NCBI GenBank assembly: GCA_049286925.1
Contig: JBAQEV010000017.1
Span: 285-64,284, forward strand
DNA length: 64,000 nucleotides
Reading direction: 5' to 3'
DNA from: Candidatus Saccharimonadales bacterium
GTDB lineage: Bacteria; Patescibacteriota; Saccharimonadia; Saccharimonadales; Saccharimonadaceae
Of this stretch, positions 190 to 22,800 are shown one piece after another. The notes below the pieces were generated by a model that ran no database searches, had not been told where the DNA came from, and was given only the letters and a program-made list of their open reading frames with translations. The translations under genes were made by a program, and so were the position numbers. Numbering within the stretch: the stretch's first letter is position 1; the number at the start of each line of letters is the position of its first letter.

Positions 190-642
190 ATGGCAAATTT
201 AAAAACTAACACAAAAGCGCGAGGTTTTACAATCGTTGAGCTTTTGGTCGTTATCGTAGTCATCGGTATTTTGGCTGCTATCACAATCGTTTCGTACAGC
301 GGTATTACTGCTCGTGCAAACACTCAAGCTAACAAATCTAACGCAAACAGCGTTATCCAAGCCGCTCAGGTTGTTTATGCAAACACTGGTGCATATCCAG
401 TAACTGATGCGTCAGCAGCAACCGTGTTATCACACTTGAATGCTAGCGATGCTAAGGTTCCTGCAACCTTGGTTGTAACAAGCGCCACAGTAACGGCAAC
501 ACCTGGTAGCCAATTGTCATACCGAGTAACCGCAACCGGAACAGGTTTCTGCGTAGGATACTGGGATTCAACTATTGCTACTCCAGCTCCTGCTTACATC
601 TACTCTGGTACAGCAACAGCTGACAACGGCACTTGCTCATAA
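190..642 (+). CDS. Type IV pilin / prepilin-type N-terminal cleavage-methylation protein
   Basis: N-terminus ARG|FTIVELLVVIVVIGILAAITIVSYSG is a class III signal peptide with Glu+5. RBS AGGAGG lies 8 nt upstream. Confidence 0.9.
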   Translation: MANLKTNTKARGFTIVELLVVIVVIGILAAITIVSYSGITARANTQANKSNANSVIQAAQVVYANTGAYPVTDASAATVLSHLNASDAKVPATLVVTSATVTATPGSQLSYRVTATGTGFCVGYWDSTIATPAPAYIYSGTATADNGTCS

Positions 643-670
643 ACCTAATATATTAAATATTAGTTCAGTA

Positions 671-700
671 TTATCCCCGCATAGGGGATATTACTTTTTA
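671..700 (+). terminator. Hairpin plus T-run after the first pilin gene
   Basis: ATCCCC (673-678) pairs with GGGGAT (684-689) and is followed by TTACTTTTT. Confidence 0.6.
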
Positions 701-734
701 TAAATACATAGAAAACCAAGGATATTTGCTAAAA

Positions 735-747
735 CGCTTGTGTTTAT
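735..747 (+). promoter_or_regulatory. Second copy of the conserved upstream element CGCTTGTGTTTAT
   Basis: Same 13-mer and same 70-nt spacing to the start codon as at 120..132. Confidence 0.4.
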
Positions 748-804
748 TAATTATTTAAATTAAAATTACGTTAAGAATTATATAACTTTAGGAGGCAACA
801 AGTT

Positions 805-1680
805 GTGATCAATAATAATAAAAGTAATCAAGCGCGCGGTTTCACGATTGTTGAGCTTTTGGTCGTTATCGTAGTTATCGGTATTTTGGCTGCTATTACG
901 ATTGTTTCGTACAGCGGCATCACTAACCGTGCGAACACTGCAGCCGGTAAATCAGACTCTAGCGCGGTTTTGGGTAAGATTGGCGCCTATTTAGCGGACA
1001 CGCAATATGGTGCTCCGACTTCATACGGATCACTAACAAACTCGGCGGCTACAGCAAGTTATGCTGTGACTGGAATGAATTTTACTACAGCATCGGGCAA
1101 CAAAGATATGACAGCCTTCCGTCCTACCGGAATTGCTACAGACGCACTTGATTTTTATCTTTGCGGCACAACCGGATCAGCAACTGCAGTATCTACATAC
1201 GGCGGTGCTACAACTGGCATCAACGTTGTAAGTGGTGTCAAAATTGGATATTGGGATTACACTTCAGGCGCTGGCGCTGAAAACAGCACTGACTTTAATT
1301 ACGGAACAGTTTCTGGCACATATGGCACCCCTGCATACAACGTTGGTTGTATAAAGGTCGGCATAGCCGAGTCAGTCGTTGCGGTAGCAAAAGCAATCCG
1401 CACCGAGACTGGCACATACCCAGCTACCGCAGCTGCTATTAACGCTAATACCGCAACAAGTGCGAAACTACCTGTCGGAGTAACAGCAACCCTTGTGAAC
1501 CCAACTACTGGCAACGGTACAACAAACGTACGTTTTGAATGTGGATCAGCAGTTGCTGCCACACTGCCCTGCAATAACACTGGTGGTCGTATTTCCTTCT
1601 GGGACTATTCACTTGGCACACCAGCTGTCGCAACAATTACTTTTGGCACAGCAGTCAACTTTGCATCTCCTGCATCATAG
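805..1680 (+). CDS. Type IV pilin paralog (larger, 291 aa)
   Basis: GTG start with GGAGG RBS. N-terminus ARG|FTIVELLVVIVVIGILAAITIVSYSG is identical to that of the 190..642 pilin. The C-terminal domain is variable and Thr/Ala/Gly-rich. Confidence 0.9.
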   Translation: MINNNKSNQARGFTIVELLVVIVVIGILAAITIVSYSGITNRANTAAGKSDSSAVLGKIGAYLADTQYGAPTSYGSLTNSAATASYAVTGMNFTTASGNKDMTAFRPTGIATDALDFYLCGTTGSATAVSTYGGATTGINVVSGVKIGYWDYTSGAGAENSTDFNYGTVSGTYGTPAYNVGCIKVGIAESVVAVAKAIRTETGTYPATAAAINANTATSAKLPVGVTATLVNPTTGNGTTNVRFECGSAVAATLPCNNTGGRISFWDYSLGTPAVATITFGTAVNFASPAS

Positions 1681-1700
1681 GATTATAAGCATAGATTTAA

Positions 1701-1730
1701 ATACCCACCTTATGAGGTGGGTATTTTATT
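1701..1730. terminator. Bidirectional terminator hairpin between the pilin gene and glyA
   Basis: ATACCCACCT (1701-1710) pairs with AGGTGGGTAT (1715-1724). It is T-rich on the + side and A-rich before it, and lies between convergent genes. Confidence 0.7.
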
Positions 1731-1743
1731 TGTAGATACTTAC

Positions 1744-3021
1744 CTATTTATCGCTAGGAAGCGGAAAGGTCCTAGCCAGTTTGACTACTTCCTTTTTAAT
1801 TTTGGCTAATTCAGTAGGCTTTTCGCGGTTATCGACTGCTTGTTTCATCCAATCAGCAATCTGGACCATATGTTCTTGTTTTAGCCCTCGTGTTGTAATT
1901 GCTGGAGTACCCAGACGAATACCACTTGGCTTGAATGGTGGCAGTGGATCATCGGGTACGGCATTGGCGTTAAGCGTCAATCCGATAGCGTCCAGTGCCC
2001 TCTCGACAACTTTGCCATCAACTCCAAAGCTCTTATATACATCAACCAACATCATGTGGTTGCTAGTACCGCCAGTTACTAACTGAAATCCGCGTTTTGT
2101 AAGCTCGTCAGCTAATGTTGATGCATTAATGACAATCTGCTGAGCATATTGCTTAAACTCGGGCTGTAGGGCCTCATAAAATGCCACAGCCTTGGCTGCA
2201 ATCGAATGCATATGCGGACCACCCTGCATGCCAGGAAAAATTGACCTATCGATTAATGTTGGGATATTCTCAAGTGTTTTTTCAGGAGCTTTTAGCGGGT
2301 TACCGACCGTTCCCATCGACAAAATCATACCACCACGTGGACCACGCAGTGTTTTGTGCGTCGTAGTTGTGATGACATGGAATCCGTAATCAAATGGGTT
2401 CTTAGCCACACCAGCGACAATCAGACCGGCAATATGCGCCATATCGGCCATCAACAGTGCCCCAACTTCGTTACCAATAGCGGCAAATTTAGCGTAATCT
2501 AACTCACGTGGATAGGCGCTAAAACCAGCCAAAATAATTTTTGGCTTATGTTTTATGGCCAGTTCGCGTAACTCTTCGTAATCAATCTCACCAGTCGAAA
2601 TATCTTTCATCTTGTAGCGTACAAAATTGTAAAGTTTGGCACTGCGCGTCACTGGCGCACCGTGGGTTAAATGTCCACCATGACCTAAATCCATCGCCAA
2701 AACAGTGTCGCCCGGTTCAAGCCATGCGCTGTAAACCGCTTCGTTTGCTGGCGCACCTGAATGTGGTTGCACGTTGGCGTGATCGCATCTAAATAATTTT
2801 TTAGCCCTATCAATAGCCAACTGCTCTACTTGGTCAGTAAACTCTTGGCCGCCGTAATAGCGCTTGCCAGGATAACCCTCGGAATACTTATTAGTAAAAA
2901 CACTGCCAAGCGCCGTTAGCACGTCTCGACTAACATAGTTTTCGCTTGGAATAAGCTCCAGCCCATCGCGTTGCCTTTTTTCCTCACCCTCAATACATTT
3001 CGCTATCTGCTTATCTTTCAT
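1744..3021 (-). CDS. glyA: Serine hydroxymethyltransferase
   Basis: Full-length SHMT signature (LELIPSENY, TTTTHKTLRGPRGG PLP-lysine region). RBS GGAGGTAGG. Confidence 0.97.
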   Translation of the reverse strand: MKDKQIAKCIEGEEKRQRDGLELIPSENYVSRDVLTALGSVFTNKYSEGYPGKRYYGGQEFTDQVEQLAIDRAKKLFRCDHANVQPHSGAPANEAVYSAWLEPGDTVLAMDLGHGGHLTHGAPVTRSAKLYNFVRYKMKDISTGEIDYEELRELAIKHKPKIILAGFSAYPRELDYAKFAAIGNEVGALLMADMAHIAGLIVAGVAKNPFDYGFHVITTTTHKTLRGPRGGMILSMGTVGNPLKAPEKTLENIPTLIDRSIFPGMQGGPHMHSIAAKAVAFYEALQPEFKQYAQQIVINASTLADELTKRGFQLVTGGTSNHMMLVDVYKSFGVDGKVVERALDAIGLTLNANAVPDDPLPPFKPSGIRLGTPAITTRGLKQEHMVQIADWMKQAVDNREKPTELAKIKKEVVKLARTFPLPSDK

Positions 3022-3151
3022 ACTACCTACCTCCTAAACTGTTAGTTAAAATTATACCACCCATCGCCTATAATTAAACATTAGTAGCGGCTTTGCGAGG
3101 TTTATCCTCGCAAACGAAGAAAATGTGTTAAAACCTCTAATTATGAGTTCC

Positions 3152-3196
3152 CACCTACCACCTACCACCTACCACCTACCACCTACCACCTACCAC
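3152..3196. repeat. Heptanucleotide microsatellite (CACCTAC) x 6.4
   Basis: Six perfect tandem CACCTAC units plus CAC, lying in the divergent glyA / HTH-murA intergenic region. Confidence 0.95.
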
Positions 3197-3238
3197 TCCG
3201 TATTGACACATATATCATCATTGATATACCATCGATAT

Positions 3239-4768
3239 ATGACAGTTATAGATTATAAAGCAAAAATCGGATCGTTAATTCAAGAGGCCAGACAATCAAG
3301 AGGTCTGACTCAATCTCAACTAGCCGAGGCTCTAAATACCAGCCAAAGCGCTATAAACCGCATCGAAAAAGGTGGCCAAAATATCAGTCTTGAGATGTTG
3401 GCTCGCATTAGTGACGTTTTGTCAAGCGAAATTATCAGCTTGAACAAGACTGGTAAGGTTAACTTTCGTATCAACGGTGGAAAAAAATTATCTGGTGAAA
3501 TAACTGTAAAAACCAGCAAAAATGCTGCTGTCGGACTACTCTGTGCCAGCCTGCTTAACCGTGGCACAACTACAATTAAGCGCGCAGCTAAAATTGAAGA
3601 AGTTAACCGAATCATTGAAGTGCTACAAAGCATCGGCGTAAAAATTCGCTGGTTAAACGACGAAAACGACCTAGAAATTACACCACCAGCTCGCCTAAAA
3701 CTTGACTCTATAAACGTTGAAGCAGCCAAGCGTACACGTTCGATAATTATGTTTTTGGGACCATTATTGCACCAGTATAAAGAATTTAAGATACCATTTA
3801 CCGGTGGATGCAACCTTGGAACGCGAACTGTCGAGCCTCATATGACCGGCTTGGCGCCATTTGGGCTTAATGTCACAGCAAACAACGACTTTTACCACGT
3901 CACTATCAATAAAAAACCAATAACTAAAACCATTTTGCTAACCGAACGTGGCGATACAACAACCGAGAACGTAGTCATGGCAGCCGCACTATACGACGGA
4001 GAAGTGACAATCAGAAACGCCAGCCCCAATTACATGGTTCAGGATGTTTGTTTTTATCTACAAAAGCTTGGCGTAAAAATCGAAGGCATCGGCACAACGA
4101 CTCTTAAAATTCGTGGTTTGCGCAGTATAAATAAAAACGTCGAATATTATCCAAGCGAAGACCCAATCGAAGCAATGAGCTTTATTGCCGCTGGCATCGT
4201 TACCGACTCTGAAATTACCATCAAACGAGTACCTATCGAGTTTGTCGAGATTGAGTTAGCAATTCTGTCGGGCATGGGCTTAAAATACGAAATAAGCGAC
4301 GAGTATATGGGCCGAAACGGCAAAACTCGACTAGTTGACCTTAAGGTTCTTAAATCAAAGTTACATGCCTCCAAGGACAAACTGCACAGCATGCCGTTCC
4401 CTGGTGTCAATATGGACAATTTGCCTTTCCTTGGTTTAATAGCAACCGTTGCCGAGGGTCGGACCCTCGTACACGACTGGACATACGAGAATAGGGCGAT
4501 TTACTTTACGGAATTAACCAAATTGAATGCGCAAATCGAACTAGCTGATCCACACCGTGTCTATATAACTGGGCCAACCAAGTGGAAACCGGCTGATATC
4601 ATTACACCGCCCGCCCTCAGGCCATCAGTTGTAATATTACTGGCCATGCTTGCCGCCCCTGGTACGTCAACACTACGCGACGTCTATTCGATTAATCGCG
4701 GCTATGAAGATTTTGCTAACCGCCTAAATACTCTTGGCGCTGATATTGATACTATTCGCGAAATCTAA
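3239..4768 (+). CDS. murA: XRE-type HTH domain fused to UDP-N-acetylglucosamine 1-carboxyvinyltransferase (MurA)
   Basis: Residues after Met39 of the tracked ORF form an HTH_3-like segment (LTQSQLAEALNTSQSAINRIEKG). A MurA/EPSP-synthase fold follows (SGEITVKTSKNAAVGLL..., loop TGGCNLGTRTVEPH with the catalytic-position Cys). I chose the 3239 ATG because the 3125 start would read through the microsatellite. Confidence 0.85.
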   Translation: MTVIDYKAKIGSLIQEARQSRGLTQSQLAEALNTSQSAINRIEKGGQNISLEMLARISDVLSSEIISLNKTGKVNFRINGGKKLSGEITVKTSKNAAVGLLCASLLNRGTTTIKRAAKIEEVNRIIEVLQSIGVKIRWLNDENDLEITPPARLKLDSINVEAAKRTRSIIMFLGPLLHQYKEFKIPFTGGCNLGTRTVEPHMTGLAPFGLNVTANNDFYHVTINKKPITKTILLTERGDTTTENVVMAAALYDGEVTIRNASPNYMVQDVCFYLQKLGVKIEGIGTTTLKIRGLRSINKNVEYYPSEDPIEAMSFIAAGIVTDSEITIKRVPIEFVEIELAILSGMGLKYEISDEYMGRNGKTRLVDLKVLKSKLHASKDKLHSMPFPGVNMDNLPFLGLIATVAEGRTLVHDWTYENRAIYFTELTKLNAQIELADPHRVYITGPTKWKPADIITPPALRPSVVILLAMLAAPGTSTLRDVYSINRGYEDFANRLNTLGADIDTIREI

Positions 4769-4770
4769 TC

Positions 4771-5103
4771 TTAAGCGTACGGGTTATAACTTTGCAGCTT
4801 TGGTGAAGCAACGCGCATTGAACCGCCAGCGTTGTATTGTTGGATTGAAGGTCGGCCGTTTACACCCAGCGGTCTGTTGATGTCAGTCGAAACCGGCTTT
4901 GCCCTAACCGCACTGTAAGAGTTGCCGATAGCTGAACGATGATAGCCCTTAATTAATTGGCGACTTGCGTCGATTTGTCGGCGCATACCAAAAGATTCTG
5001 TCGTTGTTGAGCCTACTCTGTCACCATAGGCTACCTTGGCGTAGCCGCTGCTGTGGAAATGCGAGGCGTTATCATTTGTTGCTATGTGTTTATTTAAATC
5101 CAT
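4771..5103 (-). CDS. Hypothetical small protein (110 aa)
   Basis: ORF with a weak AAGGT RBS and an extended -10 (TGTATAAT on the minus strand, + coordinates 5123..5130). No recognisable motif. Confidence 0.45.
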   Translation of the reverse strand: MDLNKHIATNDNASHFHSSGYAKVAYGDRVGSTTTESFGMRRQIDASRQLIKGYHRSAIGNSYSAVRAKPVSTDINRPLGVNGRPSIQQYNAGGSMRVASPKLQSYNPYA

Positions 5104-5137
5104 AATTTTACCTTATGTGTTTATTATACAGCAAAAT

Positions 5138-5295
5138 GAACGATGGGTTTTGGTCACGATAAATTTCCTTCGGAAATTTTCGCGACCCCGCCTCGCTTGG
5201 TAGCGTTCGCAATCCAGGCTCCGGCCTTGCGAACCGCCGACGTGGCGGTTCTCACCCACGACCTACGGTCGTGGTTTAAAACCCTATGGTACATC
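5138..5295 (-). other. GC-rich structured region containing an interrupted copy of the tRNA-His 3' half
   Basis: 5138..5152 equals tRNA-His 5342..5356 (15 nt). 5256..5266 equals 5358..5368 (11 nt). The two parts are split by a 103-nt GC-rich insert made of stacked hairpins (8-bp GAACCGCC/GGCGGTTC, 7-bp GTTCGCA/TGCGAAC, 8-bp AAATTTCC/GGAAATTT). Confidence 0.5.
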
Positions 5296-5339
5296 CCAAA
5301 ATAAAATGGCCAGGTTTTACCTGACCGTTTTATTTTGGG
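5296..5339 (-). terminator. Long hairpin immediately after (and overlapping the CCA of) tRNA-His
   Basis: CCAAAATAAAA-GG-CAGG ... CCTG-CC-TTTTATTTTGG is a near-perfect ~18-bp stem. Confidence 0.5.
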
Positions 5340-5413
5340 GCGAACGATGGGTTTTGAACCCACGACCTCTGGATCCACAGACCAGCGCTCTAACCAACTG
5401 AGCTACATTCGCC
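5336..5413 (-). tRNA. tRNA-His (GTG)
   Basis: Manual cloverleaf gives G-1, acceptor GCGAATG/CGTTCGC, anticodon loop CTGTGGA, T-loop TTCAAAA and an encoded CCA. Length 78 nt. Confidence 0.9.
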
Positions 5414-5443
5414 ACACAATAACACATCCCATTTAATACAAAA

Positions 5444-5518
5444 TGGTGCGGGCGGAGAGAATCGAACTCTCATCGTTTGCTTGGAAGGCAGACATATTAG
5501 CCTTTATACGACGCCCGC
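5444..5518 (-). tRNA. tRNA-Gly (TCC)
   Basis: Acceptor GCGGGCG/CGCCCGC, anticodon stem TCTGC/GCAAA with loop CTTCCAA, T-arm GAGAG-TTCGATT-CTCTC and an encoded CCA. Length 75 nt. Confidence 0.9.
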
Positions 5519-5566
5519 ATGTTGGTATATTATACCAGTTTATATCGGTTATCGTCCACCCATAAA

Positions 5567-5986
5567 TCACACTTCTTCAGCTTCGGCCTCATCAGCTTCT
5601 TCCCTGGTAGCATGAACTGTGCCGTGCGGGTGCTGAGGCGGTGCATAAATCGAGTAAACCTTCAGTGGCACGTCACCACTACTAATCAAATTATGCCATG
5701 TTCCGGACGGCACTACCACAATATCGTCGGCCGCTGCCTTCCAGGTTTGCAAGTCATCTTTACTTGGCCCCATCATTACTGTTGCTTGGCCCTGTTCTAG
5801 ACGCAAGAATTGATCATGAGTATCATGAACTTCCAACCCAATATCGCTGCCTGATTCAATCGACATCAATGTTATTTGCAGGTTTCTGCCCGTCCATAAC
5901 GTCGTTCGATAATTTGTGTTTTCGATTGTTGCCGTTTCGATATCCGTTACTAGTGGGCTTGGGCCGGTATCAATTATATCTGTCAT
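5567..5986 (-). CDS. Cupin domain protein
   Basis: Cupin_2-like motifs (GLEVHDTHDQFLRLEQG ... VVVPSGTWHNL). Confidence 0.8.
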   Translation of the reverse strand: MTDIIDTGPSPLVTDIETATIENTNYRTTLWTGRNLQITLMSIESGSDIGLEVHDTHDQFLRLEQGQATVMMGPSKDDLQTWKAAADDIVVVPSGTWHNLISSGDVPLKVYSIYAPPQHPHGTVHATREEADEAEAEEV

Positions 5987-6516
5987 TTCTTTACTCCTCT
6001 TTTTAATTTAGTTTTAGAAACTGCCTTTTTGGTAGCTTTATAAACCCTGTAGGTCCAATAACCCAGCCAAATCATCATCAATCCAAGCAATGCAAGCATT
6101 GCCCAGGTTGATAGTCCGGATTTTGCATCAAACGCCGACGCATTCATCTCGTACGTGATGTACGCGAAAAGCACGCTAATAAACAGTACTGTTCCTGTCA
6201 GCATTATGCGAATCATATCAAAAGCATTGTCGCGTTGTTTTTTGCCCAGTGCCATCAACCACATAGTTGTAGGAATATTTGAATATTGCGGTTTGTGATA
6301 CAGAAAAGCAAAACCCGCCAGCATCAAGGTCTGGATGACAGGCATTAAAAAGACATTGAATAGCGATTTGTCAGCCCAGCCATTGGGAAGACCATCGATT
6401 CCAAAGTGTACAGGAATGAACGCTGGCAACTTGTCCCAGTAATAAGCCGCTGTCATCCAACTGACTACAGCCAGTATAAATGCTATGAAGAAGATTATTT
6501 TGTGCTTTTGTTTCAT
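5983..6516 (-). CDS. DUF1648/SdpI-like membrane protein
   Basis: Motif YYWDKLPAFIPVHFGIDGLPNGWADKS plus 4 TM helices. I chose the ATG at 6516 because of the GGGAGGG RBS. Its stop overlaps the cupin start (ATGA). Confidence 0.7.
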   Translation of the reverse strand: MKQKHKIIFFIAFILAVVSWMTAAYYWDKLPAFIPVHFGIDGLPNGWADKSLFNVFLMPVIQTLMLAGFAFLYHKPQYSNIPTTMWLMALGKKQRDNAFDMIRIMLTGTVLFISVLFAYITYEMNASAFDAKSGLSTWAMLALLGLMMIWLGYWTYRVYKATKKAVSKTKLKRGVKK

Positions 6517-15156: not shown

Positions 15157-15178
15157 GTTATCGAACTTGTTCGATAAC
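15157..15178. promoter_or_regulatory. Perfect 10-bp inverted repeat GTTATCGAAC-TT-GTTCGATAAC, 25 nt upstream of tRNA-Pro
   Basis: Read directly from the sequence. It coincides with the stop codon of the recombinase ORF on the other strand. Confidence 0.35.
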
Positions 15179-17086
15179 GAACAAAAAGGCGAGTTCCGAC
15201 GACGGGGTGTGGCGCAGTTGATCGCGCGCGCGGTTTGGGACCGTGAGGTCGAAGGTTTGAGTCCTTTCACCCCGACCAGTAGATATTTCGTCTAAATCCG
15301 TCATCAAATTGTATGGCGGATTTAGCTTTATAACAGAGGTAGAATCATTTCCAACACGTAGGTTCGCAATAAACTCATTGCATATAGTATCCAGAACCAT
15401 GATGTCAGTCGTTTTTAGCATAGTTAACACCTTAGAACGTGTGAGTTCGTAGAATTGTTTCTCAGTAGGTAGTGCTATATCAAGTTTAGCTAGTTCAGCC
15501 TTATTGCTAACCATAGCTTCTTCATCAAGGCGTATCAGTTGTTGGTACTCTTCTAACTTGCCCTCATGGTACTTCTTGTAATCATCAGGACTGTTTACTT
15601 GGAACTCTTGATAACGTGCATACTGCTGTTCGTTATTCTTTTGTGACTGCTTAGCCTCAGCAAGCTTACGTTGTAGTATAGCCCTATCGGAAGCAATGTG
15701 TTGCTCAAGGCTGTTGATGTATATGCGGTATGCTTGCTCACTCTTTTTAGTTAAGTGACGTAGTTGCCATTCAATACCTGCTAGTACGAACTTACCACGA
15801 ATACTCTTAGAGAGTTTGATGTTGAGATTTTTCTGCTCTGTCTCATTGTGTCGTAAACAAGCCTTATTACGACAGTAGAAACTAATAACCCATTTGCCAG
15901 CATTTTTACCACGCTTAAGTGGTGTGTGTTGAAACCTCATAGTGTTATCACAGTAATCACAGATAACTTTATTATGTAGTAACCCATAGTCTAATCTTTG
16001 TGAACGGTTAGTTTTTACGCTTGTCGTTCTACCAAAATCTTTAGCAATATCGGCGTTTAGCTGTATGTACTCATCTGCTGTTATTAAAGGCTTAAAGTTA
16101 TACAAGTCTACGAGGTTTGCGAGGTTATCTCCGTAGCTGTATAAACCAGAGTAAAACGAATCTGCAAAGATGTTGCCAACCATTTGCTTAGTAACCTTTA
16201 TTAGCTTTGGCTTGTCGTCTTGGTCTTTACGTTCAGTGAGTTTTACGCTATTCAAAAACTCTGCAATATCTGTGTTATTCATGTCCCCATACAACCTCAT
16301 ATCTACTGCCTGACGTAGAACATTCCAGTTATATTCATCAGGGGTAAAGTATCCAGTAGTAGAGTCCACATAGTAGCCTTTCTTCACTACACCGTTATAC
16401 TTACCCTCTACGATATTACCGACAGTACCACGCTTCACATCAACCGCTAGTTTATCCGAGTATTGCTTAGAAGTAGCAAACAATATACCGAGCATCATCT
16501 TCCCATTTGGCGAATTGTCGAACTGATACGTAACAAATGCAAGGTCTTGAATCTCTTCATCGTCAATCATTTCTATGACTTCACCAGCTTCTTTCATGTT
16601 GCGAGATAGACGGTCAGGAGACCACGATATAAGCCCATGATATTTACCAGTCTTAAAACCAAGTAGCATTGTGTCAAAGATTGGACGATTACCAGAGGTT
16701 TTAGCAGAGGCACTTTCAACAAATATGTCTTCATCACGGATAAAAACCTCTAGGTGTTTTGCTTTTCTCAGACACTCAGTACGTTGGTCATCTAGTGAGC
16801 GTACTTGCTTAGCCTCATCATCAGTAGACTTACGTAGATATATAGCGTAACGGCGTTTTTCTTTTGGTAGTATTTTTTTAGCACCCTCTGTTGTAGCAGA
16901 GAAGTAATTTAGCAGGTCATTGACACTACGTTCACTGCTCCCGAAGGCTTTATTACGGTACTCAGATGTATATAGGTGCTGTTCTTGTACACTTGCAAGC
17001 TCAGCCTCATCTGCGAGAACTTTAGTGCGTTTTTTGCGATTAGTTGTACCTTTTGGCATATAGTTATTCCTACTAATATTGTACAA
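15158..17086 (-). CDS. Large serine recombinase (resolvase domain, recombinase domain, zinc ribbon)
   Basis: YAIYLRKSTDDE...SLDDQ catalytic Ser region, SWSPDRLSRN, and the Cys pairs CDYCDN...FYCRNKAC. The last ~40 codons are antisense to tRNA-Pro. Confidence 0.9.
   Translation of the reverse strand: MYNISRNNYMPKGTTNRKKRTKVLADEAELASVQEQHLYTSEYRNKAFGSSERSVNDLLNYFSATTEGAKKILPKEKRRYAIYLRKSTDDEAKQVRSLDDQRTECLRKAKHLEVFIRDEDIFVESASAKTSGNRPIFDTMLLGFKTGKYHGLISWSPDRLSRNMKEAGEVIEMIDDEEIQDLAFVTYQFDNSPNGKMMLGILFATSKQYSDKLAVDVKRGTVGNIVEGKYNGVVKKGYYVDSTTGYFTPDEYNWNVLRQAVDMRLYGDMNNTDIAEFLNSVKLTERKDQDDKPKLIKVTKQMVGNIFADSFYSGLYSYGDNLANLVDLYNFKPLITADEYIQLNADIAKDFGRTTSVKTNRSQRLDYGLLHNKVICDYCDNTMRFQHTPLKRGKNAGKWVISFYCRNKACLRHNETEQKNLNIKLSKSIRGKFVLAGIEWQLRHLTKKSEQAYRIYINSLEQHIASDRAILQRKLAEAKQSQKNNEQQYARYQEFQVNSPDDYKKYHEGKLEEYQQLIRLDEEAMVSNKAELAKLDIALPTEKQFYELTRSKVLTMLKTTDIMVLDTICNEFIANLRVGNDSTSVIKLNPPYNLMTDLDEISTGRGERTQTFDLTVPNRARDQLRHTPSSELAFLFVIEQVR
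15203..15278 (+). tRNA. tRNA-Pro (TGG)
   Basis: Acceptor CGGGGTG/CACCCCG, anticodon stem CGCGG/CCGTG with loop TTTGGGA, T-arm GAAGG-TTTGAGT-CCTTT and CCA. Length 76 nt. Confidence 0.9.
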
Positions 17087-17116
17087 AAATTGTACTGTAA
17101 TGTAAACTATTGTTAT

Positions 17117-17299
17117 ATGGAAAATGAACTACCAGAATATCTAACCTTGCCAGAAGTAGTGAAGATATTAAAGGTACACCCAAATACTCTACGCAACTGG
17201 GATAAGGACGGTACGCTTAAGGCAATACGCATAGGCAAACGTAACATACGACGATGGAAGAAATCTGATGTTCTAAGATTCTTAGAGGCTGGTAAGTAG
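17117..17299 (+). CDS. Excisionase-family / MerR-like HTH DNA-binding protein
   Basis: LTLPEVVKILKVHPNTLRNWDKDGTLKAIRIGKRNIRRWKKSDV. It is divergent from the recombinase. I chose the ATG at 17117 because the longer ORF overlaps the recombinase start. Confidence 0.8.
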   Translation: MENELPEYLTLPEVVKILKVHPNTLRNWDKDGTLKAIRIGKRNIRRWKKSDVLRFLEAGK

Positions 17300-17301
17300 A
17301 T

Positions 17302-17859
17302 ATGACAAAAAAGAAAGATGACTACATGGCGACCAACTCACAAGTCATGCTTGCCACTACCAAGCCGTATATCGCTGGTGCAAAAATCCAATTAGAGCGT
17401 TATCTAGAAGCACAAAGAATAATGAAAACTCACAAGATGGTTTTGGGCGGTGGAATAGATAAATGTACATATGAACTATCTGCACTGCTAGAACATTTAG
17501 ACAGCATAGAGGTGCAGCTAAGAAACAGAGGCATAACGTTGCCGACAGGTGAAATAATTCGACAATTCCGTAATCATTTACGACATGATGGTAGAGGCGA
17601 AAAAGACCGTAGCAATGGCAAACGAGGTCAGGCAATAGGCTTGAATGATAAACTACTGGTACATATAGGTTTTACTGATAGTGGTGTAAAGATGGGTTCA
17701 GTTGTACTAACTGCCCAACAGATAGATACATACATTACGACCGCCGAAACAATAATGTGGGCACTAGTGTTGGGTGGCAAGCTAGAGATTAACGGTGAAA
17801 CAGTGACCGTCTATCAACAACCTACAGACATAACCACTAAAAACACCCCAGAGGCGTAA
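17302..17859 (+). CDS. Hypothetical protein with an RNxxxH (HEPN-type) motif
   Basis: RNHLRH at residues 90-95 (nt 17569..17586). The TAATG stop/start overlaps the next gene. Confidence 0.6.
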   Translation: MTKKKDDYMATNSQVMLATTKPYIAGAKIQLERYLEAQRIMKTHKMVLGGGIDKCTYELSALLEHLDSIEVQLRNRGITLPTGEIIRQFRNHLRHDGRGEKDRSNGKRGQAIGLNDKLLVHIGFTDSGVKMGSVVLTAQQIDTYITTAETIMWALVLGGKLEINGETVTVYQQPTDITTKNTPEA

Positions 17860-18734
17860 TGGACAGTCTATTTAATAGCAGAGAGATTGCTACTGGACTA
17901 TGGCTGGTAGCACTGATAATCTTTGCTTCACGCTTCAAAGTAGTGCGTTCATCAATTGTGGATGTCCTTAAAGCATTATTCACGCCAAAACTGATTATAC
18001 CGTTACTTATATCATTTATTCCGACTACTGTGGTTGTCCTTGTGCTAGCTTATTTTGATTTGTGGGACATGTCTGTATTAAAAGAAACGATTTATTGGGT
18101 CATCGGTACTGGACTCGTAATGTTCGGTAGTTTCACTGACGTTAAAAGTGTTAAGGCACTGTACAAAAAGACAGCAAAAGACACGCTAGCATTGATTGTT
18201 GTGCTTGAGTTCCTGATTTGGTTTTATGTATTTCCACTGTGGGCTGAACTATTGTTCGTGCCGTTCGTGACCCTGCTTGTCTTATTAACGACAATGGCAC
18301 AATACATGAAGACAGAAGGCATCGACCTAACACGCAAGGTCTTAAACGGGGTTCAGGTATTTGTGGGATTGGTGATATTAATGTTTGTGATGGTAGCACT
18401 TATAAAAGACCCGAGACCGCTATTCACGTATCAGAACCTAGAGTTGTTCTTGTTGCCTCTAGTTTTGTCGTTCACATATGCACCCTCTGTGTACCTACTA
18501 GCCCTGTACAGCAAGTATGAGCTAGCTTTTAACCGTATAAACCACTTTACGACTCTAAGCAAAAAAGATAAAAATGCTATCAAATGGGCTACCATCAAAC
18601 GCTGTGGTTTAAGTGTGTCTGTAACGGGTGAGATAATACGACACTTAGCAATAAACCTAAGCAACGACACTACAAAGGCTCAAGCCCTGAAGCTTGTAAG
18701 AAACTTTGACCCGAAACAACCGTCGTTCCTATAG
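17859..18734 (+). CDS. Polytopic membrane protein (about 7-8 TM)
   Basis: Hydrophobic throughout. Translationally coupled to 17302..17859. Confidence 0.65.
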   Translation: MDSLFNSREIATGLWLVALIIFASRFKVVRSSIVDVLKALFTPKLIIPLLISFIPTTVVVLVLAYFDLWDMSVLKETIYWVIGTGLVMFGSFTDVKSVKALYKKTAKDTLALIVVLEFLIWFYVFPLWAELLFVPFVTLLVLLTTMAQYMKTEGIDLTRKVLNGVQVFVGLVILMFVMVALIKDPRPLFTYQNLELFLLPLVLSFTYAPSVYLLALYSKYELAFNRINHFTTLSKKDKNAIKWATIKRCGLSVSVTGEIIRHLAINLSNDTTKAQALKLVRNFDPKQPSFL

Positions 18735-19181
18735 CCTAGAAAATACCTAACTTTGTTAGAAACGCCCCTAGACTTGATTCATTTTTTACGTTTTTATTTG
18801 CAAAACGTACTAATACTCAACTTTCAATTTTAGACGCAAAATAATTGACGAACATACTATAAAAAACGGCAAAAAACACGCTTTTATATGCGAGATGGGT
18901 ATAACATCAACTTTTGACTTAGGACGAGAGTTTTGCGTTTTGGCTCAGGGGTGAGAAATTGCAAAACGGCATGTTTTCGAGGCTACTTGTTGTATAATAA
19001 TGCCATAGACCTAAACCAGACATATGTTTGGCATGGTCTCAAATCATCAAGAAGAAACAGCTCGTCGTGAGTACTTCTTCTTGATGTTACTACTGGAAAC
19101 GGTGGTAGGTAGCTTCGGCTATCGCTCATGGCGGGCTTTTTAGTTTGCCTGAGATACTACTAACCCGTGGAGAATCTACCA

Positions 19182-19946
19182 ATGAAGAAGGCAAACAAAG
19201 ACAACAAGAGTAAATCATTATTGAAGTGGATACTACTAGGATTGGCTGTTGTACTATTGGGGGCTGGTGGATACTTTGGCTATAAATATTACCAAGACTA
19301 TAAAGCAAATAAAGTTTACTCTGTAGGTGAATCTGTTAGTTTCTCCGACTTCGATATGCAAATTACAAAAGCAGAGTTTAAGCCAGTTAATCTAGAACTC
19401 AAATCAGATTACGTAAAGAAGTATGGAGATGTAAACTCTAAGGAAAATTGTGATACATTCTCAAAAGACAAAACATATGATATCCAGCTAAAATCTAATG
19501 TTGGAGCTTCCGAGTACAACATATGTATTAGGCGAAATGACATCAGAGATAGTGCGACTAAGTACATCAGCGACAACTCCCAATTAGTTGTAGACTACGC
19601 TATTCGCTCTAATGGAAACGTTAATAGTAAAGATATTCAATTAAGCCTCACACCTGATAGTGGTCGTGATGTTATGAAAGACAGTGGGCTGTACCTAGGC
19701 GGTTTTCAGAAAGATGCACAAGAAGAGTTCACTACAAGCAGTCTATTTCCTGCACCCGTTTACCAATTGTTTGGTTCACCGACATTTACGCATTCTGCAT
19801 ATAACAAAAGTGAACTTACTGGGGATATAAACAAAGGTCTTGAGCGTACAGGCTATATCTACACTGATGTTCGCAACTCAGAGAGCAGTGTTGATGTTAA
19901 GATAACGTATAAGGGCGAGACACGTTTAGTGCGTATTAGCAGGTAA
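19182..19946 (+). CDS. Membrane-anchored/secreted protein (possibly DUF4352-like)
   Basis: Lys-rich N-terminus plus a TM helix (WILLGLAVVLLGAGGYFGY), followed by a beta-rich domain. ATG at 19182 has GGAGA 8 nt upstream. The tracked ORF starts at GTG 19167. Confidence 0.6.
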   Translation: MKKANKDNKSKSLLKWILLGLAVVLLGAGGYFGYKYYQDYKANKVYSVGESVSFSDFDMQITKAEFKPVNLELKSDYVKKYGDVNSKENCDTFSKDKTYDIQLKSNVGASEYNICIRRNDIRDSATKYISDNSQLVVDYAIRSNGNVNSKDIQLSLTPDSGRDVMKDSGLYLGGFQKDAQEEFTTSSLFPAPVYQLFGSPTFTHSAYNKSELTGDINKGLERTGYIYTDVRNSESSVDVKITYKGETRLVRISR

Positions 19947-19951
19947 ACAAT

Positions 19952-20728
19952 ATGAAAATCACACACCACCTAGGACGATTCACTACATTCTTCAAGGAGA
20001 GCAGTCTTGTTATACAGCTAGTAATTGTAACTTCTGCTATTGGCATTATTGCAGGAACTGCGACAGTTGCAGCGATGGTAGTAACACCAAACAATAACGA
20101 AGGCTCAACCAATAGCACGACTAGCGAAAGTAGTGATGTTGCAAGCGATACCGTTAGTCAACAATCTACAAGTAATGAAGATGAACAGACAACAGATACT
20201 GACTCTGCTACAGCTACACCACAGGCAAACGAGACTACACCACAGAACAACGCACAGCAGAATACGCCCCAAGACTCTAGCAACAATAGCAAGCCAGAGA
20301 CACAGCCTCAGACACCCGCACAGCCTACTTACACAGACTCTTATTCGTTTAAGGCAAACTGCTCAAGTAGCCCACAGCAAACAAGCACACAAATGGACTC
20401 ATGGGGCTATAACAAATGCTATAGCTCAAGCTATACAGCATGGAAGGTTCAAGAGAAGTTTGGCACAGCACCTCTCAACTGGGGAGACCCTAAGAACTGG
20501 TTACAAGCAGCTGACAATGCGAATATCTCAAGAGGTACTACTGCTAAGCTGCATTCAGTAGGTATACAGACAACTGGCGGTGCTGGTTGGTCTGTATGGA
20601 TTGAAGCAGTTAATAACGATGGAACAGTAGATATAAGCTACTACAACTTCAACAATAATCTAGCTTACGGTAAACAATATAGTGTTAGTCCATCTGTATT
20701 TAATAGCTACATCTACTTTGGTGAATAG
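19952..20728 (+). CDS. Membrane-anchored protein with a T/S/Q/P-rich linker and a CHAP-like C-terminal domain
   Basis: The C-terminus resembles the CHAP layout (NKCYSSSYTAWKV ... WGDPKNWLQAA ... GGAGWSVWIEAVNNDGTVDISYYN). The expected GHVA His position reads GWSV. Confidence 0.55.
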   Translation: MKITHHLGRFTTFFKESSLVIQLVIVTSAIGIIAGTATVAAMVVTPNNNEGSTNSTTSESSDVASDTVSQQSTSNEDEQTTDTDSATATPQANETTPQNNAQQNTPQDSSNNSKPETQPQTPAQPTYTDSYSFKANCSSSPQQTSTQMDSWGYNKCYSSSYTAWKVQEKFGTAPLNWGDPKNWLQAADNANISRGTTAKLHSVGIQTTGGAGWSVWIEAVNNDGTVDISYYNFNNNLAYGKQYSVSPSVFNSYIYFGE

Positions 20729-20959
20729 TCGTATACAGGTATAAATAGACATAGCCAAAAGCTGCTAGGAATCGGGCGATTTACAGGGGTAGAAGTATGG
20801 ATTTTTCGTTTTTTACTTATGTCATGCTTATGGTATAAAGTAGTACTCCTATAAACAGGACTTACACTGCTATGCTTGTACACCCCTACCGCACCCCAGT
20901 ACTACAGCTATAACAAATCCAAGATATATAATTTTGAAATATAAATTCAGTAGATTGTT

Positions 20960-21592
20960 TTACGATACTTTTTTAGGCGGTGTTAAATCCCAGTATTCAC
21001 ACATGTGCTCAAACAGGTATTTTGCAAAGAAGCTGTCACGTTGTTCGGTAGCTATAAGCAAGACCTCGAGTCGAATTAGTTCTTCTGCGATTGTTTGGGT
21101 TTTCTCCTTCGTTTCCAAGTTCTGCGTAAAGAGATTGTGGATGATTTGATTTCTATTCTTTATAAAATTGCTTAACTGTTGTAGGTAGTCTTGGTACTTC
21201 TGCTCACTAGCATCGTCAGTGTAACGGAAAAGCTTGAGGGCTATTAGTTTAGTACCAAGCGTTAAGTCTGCAAAACCAATAGTCTTACCGTTCCGCTTAA
21301 AATTATTTGCGATTTTACCTGAAGCCTTCTCGCCGACTACATGTGGGTTAGGCTGACCACTTGTAACTGCAACCCTGTCGTAGAAGTCGTTAAGTGCACG
21401 TTCAAGCCATTGAGTTTTTATATTGAATAGACAGATAAGTTTAGTTAGCCCATCCATATTTGAGTCATTAATGTCCTTAGTGAATTTCTTATATAGTTCG
21501 TCTGCTTCTGCATATAAACGGTATTTCTTATCCATTGCCGTTTCTGGGTGAGATGACACGTAAGGAATGTCTAGTCTGTTTTCATCAATCAT
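20960..21592 (-). CDS. Hypothetical protein with an RNxxxH (HEPN-type) motif
   Basis: RNQIIH at residues 147-152 (nt 21137..21154). I chose the ATG at 21592 because it forms an ATGA overlap with the upstream gene. Confidence 0.6.
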   Translation of the reverse strand: MIDENRLDIPYVSSHPETAMDKKYRLYAEADELYKKFTKDINDSNMDGLTKLICLFNIKTQWLERALNDFYDRVAVTSGQPNPHVVGEKASGKIANNFKRNGKTIGFADLTLGTKLIALKLFRYTDDASEQKYQDYLQQLSNFIKNRNQIIHNLFTQNLETKEKTQTIAEELIRLEVLLIATEQRDSFFAKYLFEHMCEYWDLTPPKKVS

Positions 21593-22152
21593 TGTTTTAA
21601 GCCAAGTTTGAGTGCAATAAATAGGACTAGTAAAGATGACGCAACACCAAGCACGAATCCTACCAAGACCTGCACCCACTTAAAGCTCCTGTCTGAAATT
21701 AAGTGTTTATGTGTTCCGTAGCGACTCTTATACTCCTGAGAAATTCCACGCATCTCCATGAGCGTATATAGGTTATCTCTAATTCCACCCTCTATAATCT
21801 CTCGCTTTCTGAAAAGGTCAGGGTTTACTTCACGGATATGATTGCTATCGGGGAATTTCCAAGCTTGACCACACTCAAGTACATGACCAGACATTTCGCT
21901 ACCAATCGTCTGCATGTTTTTAATCATGAGGGGGTGTGCACGCCTTCGCTTAAAACGCCACATCTTCCAAGTACTAAATACGTCCTCCTTAGCTCTTTTT
22001 GCGAGACCTTCAGTTCTCCGCATACGCATATCTACATCAACTGTATGCTCCCCAAGTTTACGAAAATCTTGGATTTGGCGAAGCATTTGTTTGTTCCACT
22101 TTTTGAGTGAATCTAGTTCTTCAAATAGTTCTTTTTTGGTATAGTCTTTCAT
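21589..22152 (-). CDS. Hypothetical protein with a C-terminal TM anchor
   Basis: Charged helical N-terminal part and a C-terminal helix WVQVLVGFVLGVASSLLVLFIALKL. Coupled to 20960..21592. Confidence 0.55.
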   Translation of the reverse strand: MKDYTKKELFEELDSLKKWNKQMLRQIQDFRKLGEHTVDVDMRMRRTEGLAKRAKEDVFSTWKMWRFKRRRAHPLMIKNMQTIGSEMSGHVLECGQAWKFPDSNHIREVNPDLFRKREIIEGGIRDNLYTLMEMRGISQEYKSRYGTHKHLISDRSFKWVQVLVGFVLGVASSLLVLFIALKLGLKQ

Positions 22153-22243
22153 CTACTTACATCTTATCAGTTATTAGGAAGAGATTGGCAAACTAGAAAT
22201 GACACGAATATACGTAGGTTCAACATAATTCTCGTTAATCAAC

Positions 22244-22447
22244 TTACGACTTCTTTTTATGTGCAATATCTGGGTTTTTAGAGGTTCTTTGCTTTTTACG
22301 TTCAGGGGCATTTAGTATCATAGTGCGTCTCTCAATACTCTTTTTGACTTTATCAACACTAGTAATTTTAGGTGCACTAAAAGCCCTGTTATCCCAATTA
22401 GATGTGTCAGCAGGTGATTCTTGAGGTGGTAACTTTATCTCACTCAT
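22244..22447 (-). CDS. Hypothetical small basic protein (67 aa)
   Basis: ORF only. It lies 8 nt downstream of the stop of the open frame 22459..22615. Confidence 0.35.
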   Translation of the reverse strand: MSEIKLPPQESPADTSNWDNRAFSAPKITSVDKVKKSIERRTMILNAPERKKQRTSKNPDIAHKKKS

Positions 22448-22614
22448 TAACTTTATTATAACAAGAAGTCCATACTAGAAGCACGTTCAGACCGTACAAG
22501 GCTATCAAGTCGTGAATCTAATGAATCAAGGCTAGTTTTGATACTACCAAAGTTAACTAGCAGGTTATGCAGGGTTTTTAGAATAGGTTCGTTTGAGGAC
22601 GCAGTACGCCGACC

Positions 22615-22654
22615 AAATAAAAAAGACCATCCGTAAGGATAGTCTTTTTTATTT
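22615..22654. terminator. Strong bidirectional terminator (17 of 18 bp stem, GTAA loop)
   Basis: AAATAAAAAAGACCATCC-GTAA-GGATAGTCTTTTTTATTT. Confidence 0.75.
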
Positions 22655-22655
22655 G

Positions 22656-22800
22656 GACCGCCGGGTGGCAGGCCTCAAACCTTCGACTTTTTGTCAAAGA
22701 CAAAAATAGTCGGAGGTTTGGCGTAGCGCCATGCAGCAAAATTAGTTTACTCATTTTGCAAACAAGCGGAGGAGCCGCAGGCGATGTCCTTTCGCTCTCC
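22656..22800 (-). other. GC-rich structured region with a ~50-bp imperfect palindrome carrying an inverted copy of the tRNA-Pro T-arm
   Basis: 22674..22687 (CTCAAACCTTCGAC) is the exact reverse complement of tRNA-Pro 15248..15261. This 14-mer forms one arm of the long hairpin 22672..22722. The ends pair (GGAC-CGCC with GGCG-GTCC), and the region lies directly upstream (minus strand) of the 22615..22654 terminator. Confidence 0.45.

Follow-up and report, generated by a model that had tools for sequence, protein, structure and literature searches.

Saccharibacteria integrative elements with an apparent attachment site inside the 3' end of their large serine recombinase gene

The island adjoining tRNA-Pro in the window (the whole 64-kb stretch of DNA analysed; Table 1) very probably represents, in integrated form, a family of small (3-10 kb) Saccharibacteria integrative elements that move by means of a large serine recombinase (LSR) and have attP within the 3'-terminal part of the LSR gene. 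Judged by related loci, this design is family-wide in Saccharibacteria and shared by dozens of related elements. Sequence comparison centres attP in the LSR gene some 52 codons upstream of the stop and places the crossover in a 6-10-nt core equal to the CCA end of a tRNA, here TGGTCGG, the antisense of the ...CCGACCA of tRNA-Pro. By the same comparison, integration keeps the tRNA whole and splits the LSR ORF, leaving at attL the gene body with all canonical LSR domains, which runs on into the antisense tRNA, and stranding the last ~50 codons 7.3 kb off at attR without a start codon; excision re-fuses body and tail.

The first-pass annotation of this region (15158-22615), which described an LSR ORF antisense through the whole tRNA-Pro gene, a repeat of the last bases of the tRNA at the far end of the accessory block, and 50 more codons of recombinase frame on joining the two ends, with a stop 8 nt before the next gene, is confirmed in all its coordinates. 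Codon 603 of the LSR spans the tRNA-Pro 3' end; the residues read from 15279..17059 are island-encoded, and the last 40 codons (15158..15278) are the antisense of tRNA-Pro and of the 45 nt upstream of it. The joining of 22615 to 15279 yields an in-frame LSR ending in ...ISTGR-RTASSNEPILKTLHNLLVNFGSIKTSLDSLDSRLDSLVRSERASSMDFLL and a stop codon. The tRNA, which provides the B arm of attB, is still intact once the island is integrated, as seen by ARAGORN and Rfam at attL, and the island is of the tRNA-targeting kind, inserted at the 3' end of a tRNA gene that is kept intact by identity supplied by the element. Taken alone, these window features are only weakly beyond chance: CCGACCA occurs 5 times in the 64-kb window versus 3.9 expected, and in random sequence of the island's composition an open frame of 51 codons has p ~0.035 and one of 40 codons ~0.07. 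The evidential weight lies in the comparison with related loci.

Table 1. Features of the island and its junctions (positions in the window)
Feature	Position	Strand	Basis or remark
Island unit	15279..22615		7,337 bp, attR core included
Integrated-form LSR gene	15158..17059	-	likely start ATG 17059
Mechanical LSR ORF	15158..17086	-	642 aa, TTG start at 17086
tRNA-Pro(TGG), host, CCA encoded	15203..15278	+	ARAGORN; Rfam tRNA 56.2 bits
attL core CCGACCA (recombinase sense TGGTCGG)	15272..15278	.	last 7 nt of tRNA-Pro; crossover within
Conserved inverted repeat in LSR 3' coding region (codes KLNPPY...DL)	15292..15325	.	ends 13 nt from core
HTH_17 / MerR-type (excisionase-like) gene, divergent	17111..17299	+	PF12728 E = 7.5e-13; phrog_66
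Variable cargo region	17302..22152	.	ORFs and LOOT RNA
Cargo ORF	17302..17859	+	
Cargo ORF	17859..18734	+	
LOOT RNA	19008..19123	+	
Cargo ORF	19167..19946	+	
Cargo ORF	19952..20728	+	weak CHAP match
Cargo ORF	20960..21679	-	
Cargo ORF	21589..22152	-	
Small conserved gene, 67 aa, motif LPPQxSxxDTSNWDxR	22244..22447	-	directly after LSR tail in circular form
Extended -10-like motif TGTTATAAT over last tail codons and stop	22455..22463	-	read from sequence
Orphan LSR 3' end, 50 codons and stop (22456..22458)	22456..22608	-	re-fused frame; homology; dN/dS
attR core CCGACCA	22609..22615	.	right end of island
Hairpin terminator, host, originally 3' of tRNA-Pro; B' arm of attB	22616..22655	+	inverted repeat I2
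Predicted circle junction of window island			reads ...ATATCTACTGGTCGGCGTACTGCG...
Predicted empty site of window island			reads ...CACCCCGACCAAATAAAAAAGACC...

The window protein is a serine recombinase with a resolvase-type catalytic domain and a zinc ribbon/coiled coil. Residues 81-228 match PF00239 Resolvase (Pfam, E = 1.3e-17) and residues 65-581 the phrog_95 integrase (E = 2.5e-43), with a weak phmmer match to the Sin recombinase 5c35; the catalytic motif reads YLRKSTDD, and both S78 and the four zinc-ribbon cysteines (C367/C370/C396/C401) are invariant in the family alignment. The PF07508 Recombinase domain, precomputed for many close homologues, is absent from the Pfam output for the window LSR at E <= 0.01. 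The AF2 model of the homologue P0040 matches the SPbeta, Bxb1 and phiC31 integrases over ~600 aligned columns (Foldseek, E down to 3e-17); in this model, predicted strands flank long helices at 450-535 (the embedded coiled coil), the zinc-ribbon/coiled-coil domain ends near residue 590, and residues 601-615, which are the core codons, are disordered. The tail is predicted to be a single long helix following all canonical LSR domains (612-654 in P0040, at a mean pLDDT of only ~65-75). Moreover, the inverted repeat in the 3' coding region overlaps the P' arm of attP; its arms pair at a mean of 11.55 of 13 positions in 74 unique sequences, versus 2.8-5.9 with one arm shifted, and covary from A-T to G-C between the third codon base of Pro and the second codon base of Val/Thr. 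The repeat could be a DNA site or an RNA hairpin.

Among the 120 best homologues, the antisense tRNA-Pro peptide forms the C-terminus in 106 (95 and 11, in two reading frames), and 4 carry a tail homologous to the orphan tail of the window. An orphan tail located 3.0-9.9 kb upstream re-fuses in frame via the core in 39 of 45 locus/tail pairs (~35 distinct loci), the other 6 being partial HMM hits or degenerate second remnants. The core in the 39 pairs measures 6-10 nt, is identical to the tRNA CCA end and is present at both junctions, with Pro, Gln, Val or Leu tRNAs as targets; in-frame re-fusion through it is seen in L008, L009 and L010, and also holds for the frame-B subfamily (L021, L030), whose junction is in a different reading frame. 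Between subfamilies whose recombinases are 52-60% identical, the tail is stable in length and pattern; the tails of the integrated state vary arbitrarily in length, from 3 to ~60 residues. The alignment of homologues, proposed earlier as a way to see which C-terminus is conserved, singles out one extension, the tail. As a separate observation, the L015 recombinase is fused to a different tail, and L096/L097 hold a second, degenerate one.

The orphan tail of the window is homologous to the fused tails of P0039, P0040, P0058 and P0090 and to orphan tails in L008, L009, L010, L015 and others. By their substitution pattern, the tails are judged to be under purifying selection and to evolve as coding sequence: dN/dS is 0.12-0.39 (pS 0.25-0.50 vs pN 0.05-0.18), codon-position entropy is 0.94, 0.69 and 1.31 at positions 1, 2 and 3 (3 > 1 > 2), and none of 23 unique tails contains an internal stop codon. 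The tail lacks a start codon of its own, and its translation would need the fusion to 15279.. that the excised circle provides. Conservation lies partly in the DNA itself, because the first ~8 codons of the tail share bases with the P arm of attP and a conserved TGnTATAAT motif reaches into the last 3. Across loci, TGnTATAAT or TATAGT is kept at the position of the -10-like motif, which in the window stops 7 nt short of the small-gene ATG, a spacing that suggests a possibly leaderless transcript; a generic promoter scan did not flag the motif because it has no -35.

Free forms and empty sites are found in relatives. L001-L004 are circular permutations of one ~6.9-kb relative, recovered from four samples as contigs of 6.8-7.1 kb, of which L003 spans precisely one complete turn; terminal overlaps of 127 nt occur in L002 and L127. 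The free/circular contigs carry the fused recombinase gene with no stop at the junction, and no tRNA was found on the circular contigs scanned (L001, L002, L007). In a pair of elements at 90% identity, the attP of the free L119 equals the left part of attL (59/60), TGGTCG and the right part of attR (56/60) of the integrated L117, so that attL and attR read as attP-attB hybrids with a short core. The two alignments overlap on exactly TGGTCG, in agreement with the proposal that the short repeat is the crossover region; the crossover is placed within the core, and sequence alone gives no exact dinucleotide. The tRNA-Pro gene lies next to a glycosyltransferase in ~19 related species and is mostly unoccupied (~16 empty); these empty sites match the reconstructed attB with the same terminator, reading ...CCCCGACCA followed by AATAAAA-hairpin-TTTTATTTGG in L016, L022, L023, L026, L034 and L043. 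The expectation of a circular junction and of empty sites is hence borne out in relatives (L001-L004, L119; ~16 species) and not for the window island, whose own junction pattern has 0 matches in JGI metagenomes and for which no same-species empty site was recovered. The same-species contigs found are only L013, which carries attR, and L014, a Logan contig from a different run that ends exactly at the core, at the last base common to attR and attB. Fused tails, in-frame re-fusion, dN/dS, empty sites and the L119/L117 pair uphold the central claim of the first-pass annotation, namely an attachment site internal to the recombinase gene and a C-terminus swapped by integration.

The family could be mobile and the window copy a fixed island that excises no more, as the lack of a junction match and of a same-species empty site, with L013 and L014 as the sole same-species contigs, would fit; this is rather unlikely, given an undamaged recombinase body, orphan tail, pair of cores and small gene, and given that the end of L014 fits a fork in the assembly graph between the occupied and the empty allele. 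Tandem and composite arrangements do exist (L015; L096/L097), and the free contigs might have arisen artificially when integrated copies in tandem or duplicate were assembled. This is very improbable in view of four independent samples with mutually rotated contigs devoid of host genes or tRNA, of the single full turn in L003, and of end overlaps in L002 and L127 that are typical of circular assembly. As for the 150-nt tail, its conservation might be that of DNA (attP arm plus small-gene promoter) or of an independent small ORF, with in-frame continuity incidental, a reading that would draw on the two DNA elements at its ends and on the chance level of a lone 51-codon frame. It is hardly credible: within the window the tail itself offers no in-frame start except a terminal MDFLL; free contigs from many samples show it joined to the recombinase with no intervening stop; it is in frame in the 39 pairs, including the subfamily with the other junction frame; and its synonymous changes far exceed the non-synonymous ones, third codon positions varying most.

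The other genes of the element bear on how direction might be set. The cargo varies among related elements, whose sizes range from 3.0 to 9.9 kb, and the HTH_17 gene is not family-universal, being absent from the ORF list of the 3.0-kb element in L116. The small gene is the sole family-wide conserved partner of the recombinase and starts 1-22 nt (mostly 7-9) beyond the stop of the tail at almost every related locus. Its product matched no Pfam or PHROG family, and neither this protein nor the HTH_17 gene matches known directionality-factor families; from its position and conservation, the small LPPQ..DTSNWD protein may serve as an accessory or directionality factor.

With attP inside the ORF, the two DNA states encode two different isoforms. 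Since the integrated element can encode only the tail-swapped isoform, it follows that this isoform has to perform excision and that the tailed isoform, encodable only by the circle, performs integration. The tail, for which a single long, conserved helix carried by a flexible linker is predicted, would modulate activity, directionality, partner binding or stability, and the DNA state would thereby set the enzyme state; we infer a possible role for the C-terminal swap in switching directionality or activity, which the first-pass annotation put as a toggle between an integration-competent and an integrated state. The stronger proposal, that the helix is a built-in directionality determinant, with the tailed isoform able to perform, or confined to, attP x attB integration and the tail-swapped one performing attL x attR excision, partly or wholly in place of a directionality factor, is tentative and on balance doubtful. 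The architecture may instead be real and functionally neutral, attP overlapping the gene end through compactness, the tail being dispensable or having a role unrelated to direction, and a conventional factor (the LPPQ..DTSNWD or the HTH_17 protein) setting direction. This is a weighty possibility, if somewhat short of an even one: in the P0040 model the canonical LSR domains all precede the junction, known LSRs rely on separate directionality factors, the family-conserved small gene adjoins the tail, and the integrated state tolerates tails of arbitrary length. The view of a dispensable appendage is hard to reconcile with the tail, because it is under purifying selection and its length and pattern persist between subfamilies 52-60% identical in the recombinase, in both junction frames and at four target tRNAs; this says nothing on a role in direction.

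Direction-setting in serine integrases is a key issue in phage biology and for genome-engineering tools, and a natural family whose integrated and excised forms necessarily differ in the isoform they encode would offer a direct test system for directionality. If the helix does determine direction, the element would possess a self-toggling serine integrase, in which DNA topology writes into the enzyme which way the next reaction runs; such an integrase would be conserved throughout Saccharibacteria and could be redirected from one tRNA CCA end to another. To our knowledge, the mobile DNA of Saccharibacteria is little described; these widespread and very small elements, with att sites precisely defined at tRNA CCA ends, could become integration vectors for these hard-to-manipulate bacteria. 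Most database entries of the recombinase family have artefactual C-termini derived from antisense tRNA, with the true C-terminus lying kilobases off and unannotated.

The large serine integrases (phiC31, Bxb1, SPbeta SprA, Listeria A118/LI, TP901-1) resemble the island LSR in the resolvase domain, in the zinc ribbon with embedded coiled coil and, judged by close homologues, probably in the recombinase domain, and also in short att sites with few bases of attP/attB identity and no long direct repeats. In contrast to them, the island LSR has attP inside its ORF and two isoforms, and its family adds a ~75-residue N-terminal extension and a ~43-residue C-terminal helix. In the serine integrases that we know to be described, attP is located beyond the integrase ORF, and one protein serves both directions together with a separate directionality factor. 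The tRNA CCA end is an unusual target for this class. No earlier description of an attP internal to the recombinase gene was found for serine recombinases, the known analogues, Mx8 and the SSV-type systems, being tyrosine recombinases. In mycobacteriophages BPs and Brujita, reportedly described by Broussard and colleagues in 2013, attP is said to lie inside the repressor gene, and integration by a tyrosine recombinase reportedly changes the C-terminus of the product, removing a degradation tag from the repressor. The likeness is an attP in a regulatory gene whose C-terminal change sets the state of the element; there the repressor is split, whereas in the island it is the recombinase itself. 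Mx8 IntP/IntX share with the island an attachment site within the integrase coding sequence that integration alters: attP of Myxophage Mx8 lies within int, and integration creates a new int 3' end, the altered protein being active with modified properties (PMC6070905). Mx8 is a single phage, whereas the island family is large and retargeted among tRNAs, and the proteins have no homology. The 'suicidal' SSV-type integrases of archaeal viruses and plasmids also have the attachment site within an integrase ORF that is split on integration, but they are tyrosine recombinases, restricted to archaea, and their integrated state encodes no intact catalytic protein, whereas the island keeps the catalytic and DNA-binding domains whole at attL and exchanges only a C-terminal helix. 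The island works like the Mx8 and SSV-type systems and is a member of neither family, because its integrase is a serine, not a tyrosine, recombinase.

The large serine recombinase (LSR) of the island reads antisense through tRNA-Pro, codon 603 spanning the last base of the tRNA and the final 40 codons running antisense to the tRNA gene and the 45 nt that precede it, and it matches PF00239 (E = 1.3e-17) and, over residues 65-581, the phrog_95 'integrase' family (E = 2.5e-43). The final 7 nt of the tRNA, including its encoded CCA, form the core CCGACCA that recurs at the far end of the island, and joining 22615 to 15279 lets the LSR frame run on for 50 codons (RTASSNEP...MDFLL*; hereafter, the tail), up to a stop that lies 8 nt short of the start codon (ATG) of the minus-strand gene that follows. 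The first-pass annotation had proposed that the attachment site lies inside the recombinase gene, with integration swapping the C-terminus of the enzyme; every statement of that finding is correct, from the read-through, the repeat and the alternative C-terminus to the divergent HTH gene beside the recombinase, and the finding extends to a large family that seems not to have been described. The signals in the window are weak when taken in isolation: CCGACCA occurs 5 times versus 3.9 expected, which is not significant alone, an open frame of 51 codons has p ~0.035 in random sequence with the composition of the island, and the island is not set off by base composition (GC 0.398 vs 0.41-0.42 in the flanks).

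Features of the island and of its host-side junction in the window
Feature	Coordinates	Strand	Remarks
tRNA-Pro(TGG)	15203..15278	+	ARAGORN, Rfam agrees
LSR ORF	15158..17086	-	642 aa; likely start, ATG at 17059
Core, attL copy	15272..15278		CCGACCA
Inverted repeat	15292..15325		12-13 bp, within the LSR coding region
HTH_17 gene	17111..17299	+	divergent
LOOT RNA (Rfam RF03000)	19008..19123	+	82 bits vs gathering score 46
Terminator-like hairpin	19122..19134		downstream of LOOT RNA
ORF	19167..19946		follows the terminator-like hairpin
Small gene	22244..22447	-	ATG at 22447; 67 aa, largely low-complexity protein, motif LPPQxSxxDTSNWDxR
Stop codon of the tail	22456..22458		
Core, attR copy	22609..22615		CCGACCA
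Host hairpin	~22660..22735		host side of attR
Circle junction			reconstructed, GATTTAGACGAAATATCTACTGGTCGGCGTACTGCGTCCTCAAACG
Empty-site junction			reconstructed, GTCCTTTCACCCCGACCAAATAAAAAAGACCATCC

A search with the hypothetical fused protein retrieved 443 relatives, and all those with a source name come from Saccharibacteria or Patescibacteria. When the C-termini were read on an alignment of the best 120 of these relatives, 95 showed S/T-G-R-G followed by ERTRTFDLTVPNRAR(YQLRHTP), or by a truncated version, which corresponds to the translation of antisense tRNA-Pro, and 11 ended in WSG*, the tRNA-Pro end in another reading frame. Four homologues (P0039, P0040, P0058, and P0090; 57-62% identical) carry, fused and conserved, a tail homologous to the one stranded in the window, with the pattern GR-xT-x3-EPxL-x2-L-x2-LLLNY...SERA...FLL*, and all four are encoded on small contigs of 3.7-7.1 kb. 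Specifically, P0058 is present on contigs of six samples, among which L001-L004 (6.8-7.1 kb) are mutually rotated, L003 being exactly one turn and L002 closing into a circle of ~6.9 kb through a 127-nt terminal overlap; the P0090 contig (L127) likewise closes through a 127-nt overlap into a circle of ~4.55 kb. A tRNA scan detected none on the free contigs L001, L002, and L007 and none overlapping the recombinase 3' end on L127, and on the free contigs the recombinase frame passes uninterrupted through ACTGGTCGA into the tail. A circular junction of the kind that the first-pass annotation proposed to search for is present in free circular relatives. A degenerate junction pattern for close relatives had no match in the JGI metagenomes; IMG/VR, searched with the recombinase, yielded no relatives. 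Deposited entries such as P0002-P0120 mostly bear C-termini translated from antisense tRNA (e.g., ...GRGERTRTFDLTVPNRAR); on each island the true C-terminus of the recombinase is encoded at the opposite end and is unannotated.

Integrated relatives repeat the arrangement of the window. In three separate genomes with recombinases 84-87% identical (L008, L009, and L010), a second copy of TGGTCGG, the core in the recombinase sense, lies upstream of the tRNA junction at a distance of 6.6-7.5 kb, and joining there gives a 646-aa ORF with the conserved tail; in two loci of the WSG* subfamily (L021 and L030; 55% identical) the junction lies in a different frame, and joining still restores a conserved tail of ~50 aa. 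A tail profile run against 80 metagenome loci and the earlier loci detected orphan tails upstream of most integrated recombinases, and in-frame re-fusion was obtained for 39 of the 45 locus/tail pairs (~35 distinct loci; elements of 3.0-9.9 kb) across a 6-10-nt core that exactly matches the CCA end of whichever tRNA is occupied, namely TGGTCG(G) at tRNA-Pro (anticodons TGG, CGG, and GGG), TGGCTG at tRNA-Gln, TGGTGG at tRNA-Val, and TGGTGGGCG at tRNA-Leu. The six pairs that were not re-fused are either hits to part of the profile or second remnants that have degenerated. In L015 (ERZ28655887 scaffold_2635, 394..6453), the recombinase P0001 (88% identical to that of the window) is joined to a 53-aa tail of another, seemingly unrelated kind, with other genes behind it, and its own orphan tail lies 4 kb upstream at a normal attR; two elements may be present here, in tandem or as a cointegrate. 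L096 and L097 (Ga0209542) have a second, degenerate orphan tail (5382..5537) with its own small gene 1.5 kb past the functional attR, apparently left by an earlier element that had occupied this tRNA-Pro; a second element would have had to integrate there without a regenerated attB.

The adjacency of a glycosyltransferase gene and tRNA-Pro seen in the window is kept in ~19 other Saccharibacteria species, and only three of those sites hold an LSR. Several empty sites read ...CACCCCGACCA followed by AATAAAA, a hairpin, and TTTTATTTGG, like the attB rebuilt from window positions 15249..15278 and 22616 onwards. The crossover region is delimited by a free (L119) and an integrated (L117) element that are ~90% identical: their two BLAST segments overlap exactly at TGGTCG, and the attP of L119 consists of the left arm of attL (59/60) and the right arm of attR (56/60) of L117, a relationship that is the hallmark of conservative site-specific recombination with its crossover in the core. 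L014, a Logan contig from the same strain as the window, stops exactly at ...ATTTGGTCGG, the last base common to attR and attB, as it would if the assembly graph branched there between the occupied and the empty allele; this is suggestive only. Exact-sequence look-up of same-strain contigs gave no match for the 146-aa left-flank protein and, for the right-flank protein, only one occupied contig and L014 ending at the core. An inverted tRNA-Pro-like fragment at 22660..22690 was considered as an att remnant or second tRNA and rejected, being an arm of the host hairpin, which empty sites have as well. This long hairpin lies behind the shared terminator, its arms resemble the tRNA-Pro T-arm (GTCGAAGGTTTG), and in other species (L016, L018, L034, and L035) it recurs at empty tRNA-Pro sites, where both arms carry base changes. 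Neither the fragment nor the whole hairpin has an Rfam match, and the hairpin may be an undescribed small RNA or 3'-UTR structure.

The tail bears the marks of coding sequence. In the window, L008, L009, L010, and L015, the orphan tails have pS of 0.25-0.50 and pN of 0.05-0.18 (dN/dS 0.12-0.39), and 23 unique 52-codon tails show entropies of 0.94, 0.69, and 1.31 at codon positions 1, 2, and 3 and zero stops, a pattern that argues for translation. Since the window tail lacks an in-frame start codon of its own, it would be translatable only after fusion. P0040 was modelled with AlphaFold2 on an alignment of 45 sequences (mean pLDDT 75), and the model has the usual LSR layout, with catalytic and recombinase domains and a zinc ribbon with long coiled-coil helices (450-535), followed by the last strands (573-588), a linker modelled at low confidence (601-615) that corresponds to the codons across the att core, and a tail predicted as one helix (612-654). 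Foldseek matched the model best to full-length SPbeta, Bxb1, and phiC31 integrase complexes (E down to 3e-17). Integration therefore leaves every canonical domain in place and swaps only the flexibly tethered helix for an antisense-tRNA peptide, the replacement tails ranging from 3 to ~60 residues. At the other end of the protein, LSR residues 1-75 form an extension before the catalytic domain that is unusual among LSRs; the corresponding region of P0040 is modelled as two helices (20-46 and 53-68).

Two more conserved features lie at the site. The inverted repeat in the LSR coding region ends 13 nt from the core and is shared, at the same place, by 74 unique related sequences, with compensatory A-T to G-C changes that pair a synonymous Pro position with a Val/Thr replacement. 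The repeat may act as a binding site in the DNA or as a hairpin in the RNA. The small gene, which starts 1-22 nt (mostly 7-9) past the tail stop in related loci, is the sole partner that accompanies the recombinase throughout the family, even in 3-kb elements, and its product belongs to no Pfam or PHROG family. An operon in which the recombinase promoter alone drives it in circles was considered; this reading is weakened by a conserved TGnTATAAT motif that overlaps the FLL* codons of the tail and ends 7 nt before the ATG, so that the small gene may be transcribed from a promoter of its own, as a leaderless RNA, and not depend on recombinase read-through. HTH_17 was rejected as a core component, as minimal elements lack it, and the LOOT RNA was rejected as a hallmark because it is missing from 8 related loci, which marks it as cargo and not as part of the integration module.

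At the sequence level, the architecture, both DNA states in the family, and the crossover region are established, and the swap of the C-terminus by integration holds structurally across homologue tails, free forms, orphan tails, and the L119/L117 pair. The switch that the first-pass annotation had built on it is a well-motivated hypothesis. By logic, the integrated element can encode only the tail-swapped LSR, which must then be the form that excises, and the tailed enzyme, encodable only by the circle, is the form that integrates; the conserved helix would be expected to affect activity, direction, partner binding, or stability. As to stability, the conserved hydrophobic end of the tail (...FLL) may be a degradation signal. 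In a structural preprint on phiC31, acidic residues at the very C-terminal end of the integrase are reported to contact its directionality factor (10.1101/2025.05.02.651858), and a role of C-terminal appendages in direction control therefore has precedent. That the tail itself controls direction is rather doubtful, and that it has some functional role is considerably more likely.

Mycobacteriophages BPs and Brujita follow a related logic, with attP inside the repressor gene. The enzyme described here belongs to the large serine recombinases; the integrases of myxophage Mx8 and of the SSV type are both tyrosine recombinases without homology to it. In a literature search of incomplete coverage, no serine recombinase with attP in its own gene and no Saccharibacteria elements of this type were described; given that coverage, absence of description is not proof of novelty, and the serine-recombinase version of the design is apparently undescribed. 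The placement of attP within the integrase gene is common to the window island, to Mx8, in which attP lies inside int and integration creates a new int 3' end and an enzyme that is active but altered (PMC6070905), and to the archaeal 'suicidal' SSV-type integrases (PMC8371274).
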